This document shows, one piece after another, positions 19,901 to 22,900 of a DNA stretch of 64,000 nt. Location of the stretch: assembly GCF_016026235.1 (NCBI RefSeq), contig NZ_CP065613.1; one strand, given 5' to 3'. Source of the stretch: Escherichia coli (lineage in GTDB: Bacteria; Pseudomonadota; Gammaproteobacteria; Enterobacterales; Enterobacteriaceae). Made by a program: the position numbers. The stretch's first letter is position 1; each line of letters opens with the position of its first letter.

Positions 19901-22900
19901 CCTGCCGGGAATAAACATAAACAGTTTCCCCGGAGTAACGCTTTCAGAAAACTGCCCTCCTGAAGAAGAATAAAATAAAGAAGATGACAGTTCCTGCGCT
20001 GAATGCTGAGTACTCAGTACAATATTCTATGGACAGGATGACATTTTTATAAATAACAAAAACCATTTAATACTGACATATCAGGAAAATCCCCCTCCCT
20101 GCCGGCACAGATAAAATGCACCATTTTTTCTTCAAATACTTCTGTATAATCGCAGCCAGCCAATGATGAGAATGGATAAAAACAACACTTCCTCGACAAA
20201 CACAAAAACCAGCCTTCATTTTCACATCATCATCCAGTTTTAATTAAACCCTGACGAGCGACAGTATTTCAGTTCAGGAATTAAAAGCCAGCTATTACTC
20301 AGTAAAAACACCACCAACTAATAATATCTCAGCAGATATTTCCTGACCAGGATGACACATTTATTAAAGATTTTTAACAGGACACTTCACATTACTGAAC
20401 GCTATTCCGACAGTATCACTACACAAATAAAAAAGGGAACTGGATAAATATTCATGCCGGAAGAATGGTGTAACAAAAGCATTTAATCATTACGTGCGTA
20501 TTCCTCTCTATTCGATCACGGTTTGGCCAAACCGTGATCGATTCAGATGCCATTTTGCAAGTACGCATGACCCGGAAGGGAAACACTTAACAACATGGTA
20601 TCAACAGATATCATTACGTGCGCACTCTTATAAAAATACACAGCAGAAGCAAGATAACTCTAAACGTAAATTTAATATCTCCCACTGACTGCCCCGACAA
20701 TATACTGAAAAATACTCACCTCAGTAAACATAAACACACCTGATAATCAGGCTGCAAGATGAATATTTTCTCCTTTACGGAGTAATCAGCCTGCTGTTTA
20801 ACAATAACCGCGTATTTTCATGGAAGGATATCACCCAATAACGGATAACTCCTGCCCTCCTTCATGTTAATACGCAACATCCCCATCGATTCCAAACAAT
20901 TTCAGACAGATATTATCTCCGTGAATCCCCCGCCACCTTTCCGGTGTGCGGGGTTTTGTCTTTTTTCACCGGGAATACATGTATGAATCCGTCTGATGCC
21001 ATTGAGGCAATTGAAAAACCGCTCTCCTCCCTGCCTTATTCACTTTCCCGTCACATCCTGGAACATCTGCGCAAACTCACCAGCCACGAACCCGTGATTG
21101 GCATTATGGGGAAAAGCGGGGCCGGTAAATCCTCACTCTGTAATGCACTGTTTCAGGGGGAGGTCACCCCGGTCAGTGATGTTCACGCCGGCACCCGGGA
21201 AGTGCGGCGCTTCCGTCTGAGTGGCCACGGTCATAGCATGGTTATCACTGACCTGCCCGGGGTGGGCGAGAGCCGGGACAGGGATGCAGAGTATGAGGGC
21301 CCTGTACCGTGACATTCTGCCTGAACTGGACCTGGTACTGTGGCTGATTAAAGCCGATGACCGTGCCCTGTCTGTGGATGAGTATTTCTGGCGACACATC
21401 CTGCACCGGGGACATCAGCGGGTACTGTTTGTGGTGACGCAGGCCGACAAAACGGAGCCCTGCCATGAATGGGATATGGCCGGTATTCAGCCTTCTCCTG
21501 CACAGGCACAGAATATTCGCGAAAAAACGGAGGCGGTATTCCGTCTGTTCCGGCCCGTACATCCGGTTGTTGCCGTATCGGCCCGCACCGGCTGGGAACT
21601 GGATACGCTGGTCAGTGCGCTCATGACAGCGCTTCCCGACCATGCCGCCAGTCCCCTGATGACCCGACTGCAGGACGAGCTGCGCACGGAATCTGTCCGG
21701 TCTCTGGCCCGTGAACAGTTTACCGGTGCGGTGGACCGGATATTTGACACGGCGGAGAGCGTCTGTATTGCCTCTGTTGCACGCACGGTTCTGCGTGCCG
21801 TCCGTGACTCGGTGGTCTCTGTTGCCCGTGCGGTATGGAACTGGATTTTCTTCTGAACCTGTCGTGACTGATGCCCACCCTGACTCTGAGTCTGCTCACA
21901 AAAGCGCTGTTTTCGTTGCTGTCTCTCTTGTCCGTGCAATAGCTCAATAATAGAATAAAACGATCGATATCTATTTTATCGATCGTTTATATCGATCGAT
22001 AGGCTAATAATAACCTTTGTCAGTAACATGCACAGATACGTACAGAAAGACATTCAGGGAACAACAGAACCACAATTCAGAAACTCCCACAGCCGGACCT
22101 CCGGCACTGTAACCCTTTACCTGCCGGTATCCACGTTTGTGGGTACCGGCTTTTTTATTCACCCTCAATCTAAGGAAAAGCTGATGAAACGACATCTGAA
22201 CACCAGCTACAGGCTGGTATGGAATCACATTACGGGCACCCTGGTGGTGGCTTCCGAACTGGCCCGCTCACGGGGAAAACGCGCCGGTGTGGCGGTTGCG
22301 CTGTCTCTTGCTCCTGTCATGTCAGTCCCGACACTGGCTGCTGACATCGTTGTACGCCCGGGAGAAACCGTGAACGGCGGAACACTGGCAAATCATGACA
22401 ACCAGATTGTCTTCGGTACGACCAACGGAATGACCATCAGTACCGGGCTGGAGTATGGGCCAGATAACGAGGCCAATACCGGCGGGCAATGGGTACAGGA
22501 TGGCGGAACAGCCAACAAAACGACAGTCACCAGTGGTGGTCTTCAGAGAGTGAACCCCGGTGGAAGTGTCTCAGACACGGTTATCAGTGCCGGAGGCGGA
22601 CAGAGCCTTCAGGGACGGGCAGTGAACACCACGCTGAATGGTGGCGAACAGTGGATGCATGAGGGGGCAATAGCCACAGGAACCGTCATCAATGATAAGG
22701 GCTGGCAGGTCGTCAAGCCCGGTACAGTGGCAACGGATACCGTTGTTAATACCGGGGCGGAAGGGGGACCGGATGCAGAAAACGGTGATACCGGGCAGTT
22801 TGTTCGCGGGGATGCCGTACGCACAACCATCAATAAAAACGGTCGCCAGATTGTGAGAACTGAAGGAACGGCAAATACCACTGTGGTTTATGCCGGCGGC

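Follow-up and report, generated by a model that had tools for sequence, protein, structure and literature searches.

Background

The closest described relative of the gene considered here is yeeP (b1999) of Escherichia coli K-12, which lies in the cryptic prophage CP4-44, at a site next to cobU, and is annotated as a pseudogene in MG1655. In the literature yeeP has served mainly as a neutral 'pseudogene' integration site of K-12 engineering strains, and a literature search on yeeP and on YfjP/YkfA function found no functional or experimental study of the YeeP/YfjP/YkfA family. Two paralogues in other K-12 elements, YfjP in CP4-57 and YkfA in CP4-6, are intact and are followed by a DUF932 gene. 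At a greater distance stand the TRAFAC-class (MMR_HSR1) G domains of Era, Der (EngA) and MnmE.

Here we consider a yeeP-type gene in a stretch of 64,000 nucleotides from an E. coli assembly (GCF_016026235.1, contig NZ_CP065613.1), hereafter the window. It shares its type with K-12 yeeP, both being pseudogenes, and the gene order is the same in the two places: yeeP, isrC, flu/agn43, yeeR and onwards. The two copies differ in location, the window copy being carried on a pheV island with aerobactin genes, and in the manner of their ruin: K-12 yeeP has a 5' truncation and no frameshift at the G run, whereas the window copy retains all 290 codons and has gained one extra base. Taken together, the evidence set out below makes it very probable that the window carries a genuine, recent and clade-restricted loss-of-function insertion of one G in a yeeP-type GTPase gene, independent of the truncation in K-12.

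A single extra base in the GTPase gene

The gene and the parts of its break are as follows.

20983..21856, plus strand: the whole yeeP-type GTPase pseudogene, 874 bases, or 873 (290 codons and a stop) without the extra G
20983..21312, plus strand: N-terminal ORF of 109 aa, starting at ATG 20983, its exact product being STM05970.1
21297..21299, plus strand: GGG run with the one-base insertion, where intact alleles have GG
21310..21312, plus strand: premature TGA in frame 0, four codons past the insertion
21284..21856, plus strand: C-terminal ORF of 190 aa in the +1 frame, starting at ATG 21284, its exact product being STM05969.1

Bases 21295-21312 read GAG GGC CCT GTA CCG TGA, such that frame 0 ends in DRDAEYE followed by four out-of-frame codons (GPVP) and the TGA. 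The +1 frame opens from ATG 21284 as MQSMR-ALYRDILPELDL, encodes the authentic residues 106-290 from 21298 on (185 authentic codons) and stops at 21854-21856; it holds a second in-frame ATG at 21293, and overlaps frame 0 by 29 bases. A preliminary description of the window, made from the sequence alone, had placed a single-base frameshift within 21285-21305 and suggested one extra G. Both points hold: when the window is aligned with the intact gene of E. coli B1_2, the one gap that opens is in the G run (the window has GAGGGCCC where B1_2 has GAGGCCC), so that the extra G is one of 21297-21299, and a three-way alignment that includes K-12 places the gap in the same run. A 1001-base query from the window likewise aligned with 1000-base stretches in the best-matching complete E. 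coli genomes of the 5,426 searched, where the orthologous places bear the annotation 'GTPase family protein'. The extra G also completes a palindrome, GGGCCC.

Deletion of one G from the window gene restores a frame of 290 aa whose translation is identical, amino acid for amino acid, to a protein that many contigs carry in intact form (WP_147692060.1, P0031). Between the gene of that intact protein and the repaired window gene there are three differences, all of them synonymous, and the comparison revealed no second inactivating change in the repaired gene; the lesion is therefore recent. Since frames 0 and +1 jointly spell out a 290-aa protein that is intact elsewhere, the arrangement of the two ORFs is not a chance pattern. 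In the public record STM05970.1 and STM05969.1 are each named "putative GTP-binding protein", and the practical use of the present finding is a point of annotation: 20983-21856 should be annotated as one frameshifted pseudogene and not as two genes under that name.

What the gene encoded and where it is broken

The repaired 290-aa protein matches the Pfam family MMR_HSR1 (PF01926) over residues 39-151 with a score of 55.1 bits (cut-off 21.9, E 9.9e-15). Its G1 or Walker A motif, GxxxxGK[ST], is present as GKSGAGKS (residues 43-50), its G2 is the switch I threonine T71 and its G3 is DLPG (residues 90-93), all three in the first ORF, while G4 (TQAD, residues 152-155), G5 (SAR, residues 199-201) and the C-terminal tail are in the +1 ORF. 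G3 is thus parted from G4 and G5 by the frameshift at codon 106, and no one polypeptide holds them all. Because the MMR_HSR1 match covers residues 39-151, and the repaired protein matches Der, Era and MnmE in their G domains over residues of about 36-229 (E 1e-8 to 1e-6), the break, at residue 106, interrupts the G domain between G3 and G4.

In the alignment the two ORFs run colinear, end to end, with the intact 290-aa orthologue and with K-12 YfjP and YkfA, straight through the site of the lesion. The stretch across it is kept (DAEYEALYRDILPELDLVLWLIKADDRAL in the repaired window protein, DTEYAALYREQLPRLDLILWLIKADDRAL in YfjP): EY[E/A]ALYR is common to all, and YfjP and YkfA both read EYAALYRE. 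The two paralogues further share with the window gene their architecture and nearly their length (287 aa against 290), the G1, G3, G4 and G5 motifs, EY(A/E)ALYR(E/D) across the frameshift site, a C-terminal VVSVARAVW tail and the same place in a CP4-type module. They differ from it in that identity over the window's N-terminal 109 residues is only 54-59%, and in that the window gene leads into isrC-agn43 whereas theirs lead into DUF932. On the profile match and the paralogue alignment, the gene is predicted to be a P-loop GTPase of the YeeP/YfjP/YkfA type, the family to which the preliminary description had assigned it.

The resemblance to Era, Der and MnmE is one of G domains. The repaired protein scores far below the NCBIfam equivalog cut-offs (53 bits against 237 for Era, for example) and is without a KH domain or a second G domain. 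The gene is an accessory one carried on an island, and not that of a ribosome-assembly factor. Assignment of the intact protein to a defence system or phage family was considered and not built upon, the matches being weak: PADLOC profiles gave LeoBC (E 3.5e-8) and LeoA (E 5.7e-5), which are dynamin-like, and PHROGs gave families of unknown function.

Two pseudogenes, two lesions

The preliminary description stated that yeeP is also a pseudogene in K-12, which the annotation bears out, and wondered whether the lesion might be lineage-wide. That further step fails. Homology to K-12 yeeP begins at window position 21304, downstream of the G run, and continues at 97.2% DNA identity through flu; what is absent in K-12 is the 5' 321 bases of the gene (~107 codons), including the start codon, the P-loop and the G run itself, and a lesion shared with K-12 is not supported. 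The K-12 truncation and the window frameshift are two independent inactivations. The 5' breakpoint of K-12 yeeP, at window 21303/21304, follows the extra G at a distance of only about 5 bases. We treat this nearness as a coincidence; in an 873-base gene, a second lesion would be expected to fall within 6 bases of a given site in about 1.5% of cases.

This corrects any assumption that all yeeP pseudogenes share one lesion, and a pair of independent lesions is in keeping with accessory genes of CP4-type islands decaying repeatedly and independently. The finding adds nothing on the function of the YeeP/YfjP/YkfA GTPases, and is a case of ordinary gene decay.

Spread of the extra G

In a large protein collection the exact 109-aa product occurs on 10 contigs and the exact 190-aa product on 8, the longest contig with truncated products being 4.56 Mb. 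Four draft assemblies that carry the allele were compared with the window.

GCA_001907565.1: 6.3-20.6 kb compared, 99.98% identity to the window, same extra G
GCA_002467135.1: 6.3 kb compared, 99.97% identity, same extra G
GCA_902503985.1: 466 bases compared, 99.8% identity, same extra G
GCA_001907385.1: 16.2 kb compared, 100% identity, same extra G

None of the four shows a gap against the window in or around the GTPase gene, which makes an error private to one assembly very unlikely. A continuous frame on resequencing would, by the preliminary description, have spoken against the frameshift; in effect the answer is negative, since these other drafts reproduce it. The four come under four accession prefixes (LSGM, LSGI, NJND and CABWDS), of which LSGI and LSGM are consecutive and may stem from a single project. 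It is possible that every carrier is an isolate of the same clone, in which case the evidence is less independent than the number of assemblies suggests.

Among complete genomes the allele is missing altogether. A 40-mer spanning the extra G, which seeds a megablast match only if the insertion is present, had no hit among the 5,426 complete E. coli genomes, while the corresponding 39-mer without the extra G, serving as positive control, was found in 932 of them, 911 exactly. This pair was used because the identity bands of a longer probe do not separate a gap from the combination of a SNP and the extra G; that longer probe, a 75-mer that takes in the site, was matched exactly by none of 4,048 matching records from complete E. 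coli genomes. With the extra G in 0 of 5,426 complete genomes against 932 without it, and only 10 contigs carrying the 109-aa product, the notion of a lineage-wide lesion gives way to a much narrower one: the GGG allele is limited to a small clade of near-identical E. coli strains, for which the one-base insertion provides a clean marker.

One carrier, GCA_002467135.1, has two extra substitutions relative to the window, at gene positions 685 and 723 and thus past the break. They would fit relaxed constraint, or drift, after inactivation.

How the gene would have been lost

On the reading that best accounts for these observations, the GG dinucleotide at codons 105/106 in an Era/Der-like GTPase gene has gained one G, presumably during replication, through slippage or misincorporation. 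Translation of the resulting message runs through four wrong codons to the stop at 21310-21312, and yields a 109-aa fragment that retains the P-loop, the switch I threonine and DxxG and has forfeited G4 (TQAD), G5 (SAR) and the C-terminal third. Such a split protein is probably non-functional, making the allele a null of an accessory GTPase. The mutation has been inherited by a small clade of near-identical strains and is absent elsewhere; the loss of the gene was probably neutral, an instance of the ordinary decay of accessory island genes.

It might be objected that the organism has an undamaged gene and that the extra G is a homopolymer miscall. The change does affect a short run of G that borders on a run of C, and the window contains two one-base deletions in C runs of an IS66-family transposase gene that is intact in a sister assembly. 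Yet a run of three bases is a weak context for homopolymer error, truncated products recur on 10 and 8 contigs, and the identical extra G is found in four other draft assemblies, including one whose IS66 gene is intact; a sequencing or assembly artefact is therefore very unlikely. Alternatively, a full-length GTPase might still be made by programmed +1 ribosomal frameshifting or by transcriptional slippage at GGGCCC, and it is true that a +1 shift between 21298 and 21309, within the overlap of the two frames, would yield a nearly authentic protein. We give this next to no credence, however: the shift site is not conserved, a single frame being seen both in the paralogues and in the orthologues of complete genomes, and an allele of identical protein sequence is intact elsewhere. 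Furthermore, by direct reading, the last codons of frame 0, GTA CCG TGA, offer neither a prfB-like slippery codon nor +1 re-pairing of a P-site tRNA, and the site has no A or T run of a length on which RNA polymerase could slip. A further alternative is a phase-variable contingency locus, in which slipped-strand mispairing in the G run would switch the gene on and off. An indel in a mononucleotide run upstream of the known phase-variable gene agn43 invites the thought, but the run is only 2 bases long in the intact gene and 3 in the mutant, and tracts of 2-3 bases are far below the lengths that slip at useful rates. GGG is never seen in complete genomes while GG is seen in 932, the described clade alone having three, and the GATC sites of the agn43 switch are separate, at 21962-21997; the probability of such a switch is vanishingly small.

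Cells might, on the other hand, make both the 109-aa and the 190-aa polypeptides and reassemble them into an active GTPase. Translational coupling is conceivable, since the second ORF, opened by the ATG at 21284 (with another at 21293), overlaps the end of the first, and the frames are otherwise undamaged on both sides of the break, although a recent mutation explains this equally well. Against reassembly stand the position of the break inside the G domain, between G3 and G4, the lack of any split arrangement in the other genomes examined, and the further substitutions past the break in GCA_002467135.1, which would fit drift; we consider a functional split protein highly improbable. It is similarly hard to believe that the allele is other than simply dead in some broader sense, with activity kept by low-level +1 recoding or reassembly of the halves, or with loss of the GTPase selected in the clade, for example through an effect on how the pheV island is maintained or on read-through into the phase-variation region of isrC-agn43. 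Were that so, it would provide the first phenotype for the YeeP/YfjP/YkfA family. The preferred reading is accordingly still a genuine and recent null mutation confined to a small clade.

The pheV island and its erosion

Beyond the GTPase gene, the features of the island that bear on its context are these.

21960..22163, plus strand: IsrC (IS102) small RNA, Rfam RF00124, 252 bits, with K-12 isrC in the same place
22184..25303, plus strand: autotransporter gene agn43 (flu), without interruption, the matching gene bearing the name agn43 at two other loci (L001 and L009)
34014..34035, plus strand: 22-base remnant of the 3' end of tRNA-Phe (pheV), at the right end of the island and adjoining yghD/gspM

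The GTPase gene is the first gene of a conserved yeeP-isrC-agn43-yeeR... module in an island inserted at pheV. The pheV remnant (TTCGATTCCGAGTCCGGCACCA) has one G fewer than the tRNA gene and lies at the position of pheV in strain 88-3493; the aerobactin genes are on the left of the island. A tRNA scan found no complete tRNA gene in the window, which places pheV itself outside it, past the left end. Between the GTPase gene and agn43 there are three GATC sites, at 21962, 21981 and 21994, and agn43 switching works via Dam and OxyR at such sites. As agn43 thus has a regulatory region of its own, no polar effect of the frameshift upon it would be expected.

The island is eroding generally, with an IrmA-family frameshift here and several pseudogenes in related islands of other strains. 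The IrmA-family gene (28016-28467), 7 kb downstream, is broken at about 28201-28204, where CCCCC in strain SCU-172 has become CCCC in the window. It is split alike (78 + 69 aa) in GCA_001907565.1 and GCA_001907385.1, making it a second clade-shared homopolymer indel. In the island of strain SCU-172, iucA, yfjI and others are pseudogenes. The two deletions in the IS66-family transposase gene (13272-14871) lie near 13733 and 13899, and the same gene is an intact 533-aa ORF in GCA_001907565.1; they are either real decay of the IS copy or homopolymer errors of the window assembly. The yeeP site is not among the differences between the window and GCA_001907565.1.

Further to the left, an IS4/Tn5-family gene is interrupted (7096-9288). 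Its parts match at 7099-7845 and 9088-9288, and between them lie about 1.2 kb with a 272-aa ORF (8228-9046), presumably another insertion sequence. Immediately before the GTPase gene, 1.3 kb without sizeable ORFs (19662-20982) separates it from a YfjI-family gene, with a terminator-like hairpin and T run at 20939-20953, some 30 bases ahead of the ATG of the GTPase gene. Elsewhere the corresponding stretch holds an IS3 element (B1_2) or, before yfjP in K-12 CP4-57, abpAB and rnlAB, and it may be a hot spot for cargo.

To the right of the island, the right-hand 24 kb of the window are only 97.6% identical to the best complete genome, with lower values confined to gsp/sslE. An origin outside E. 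coli, which the overall figure might suggest, was considered and rejected on the strength of this confinement and of the glc values. There the gsp type II secretion genes and sslE (34014-51000) reach only 93-97% identity to the best complete E. coli genome, against 98-99.5% for the adjoining glc genes. The gsp/sslE stretch belongs to a region known to be variable, of which the window has a divergent allele block.
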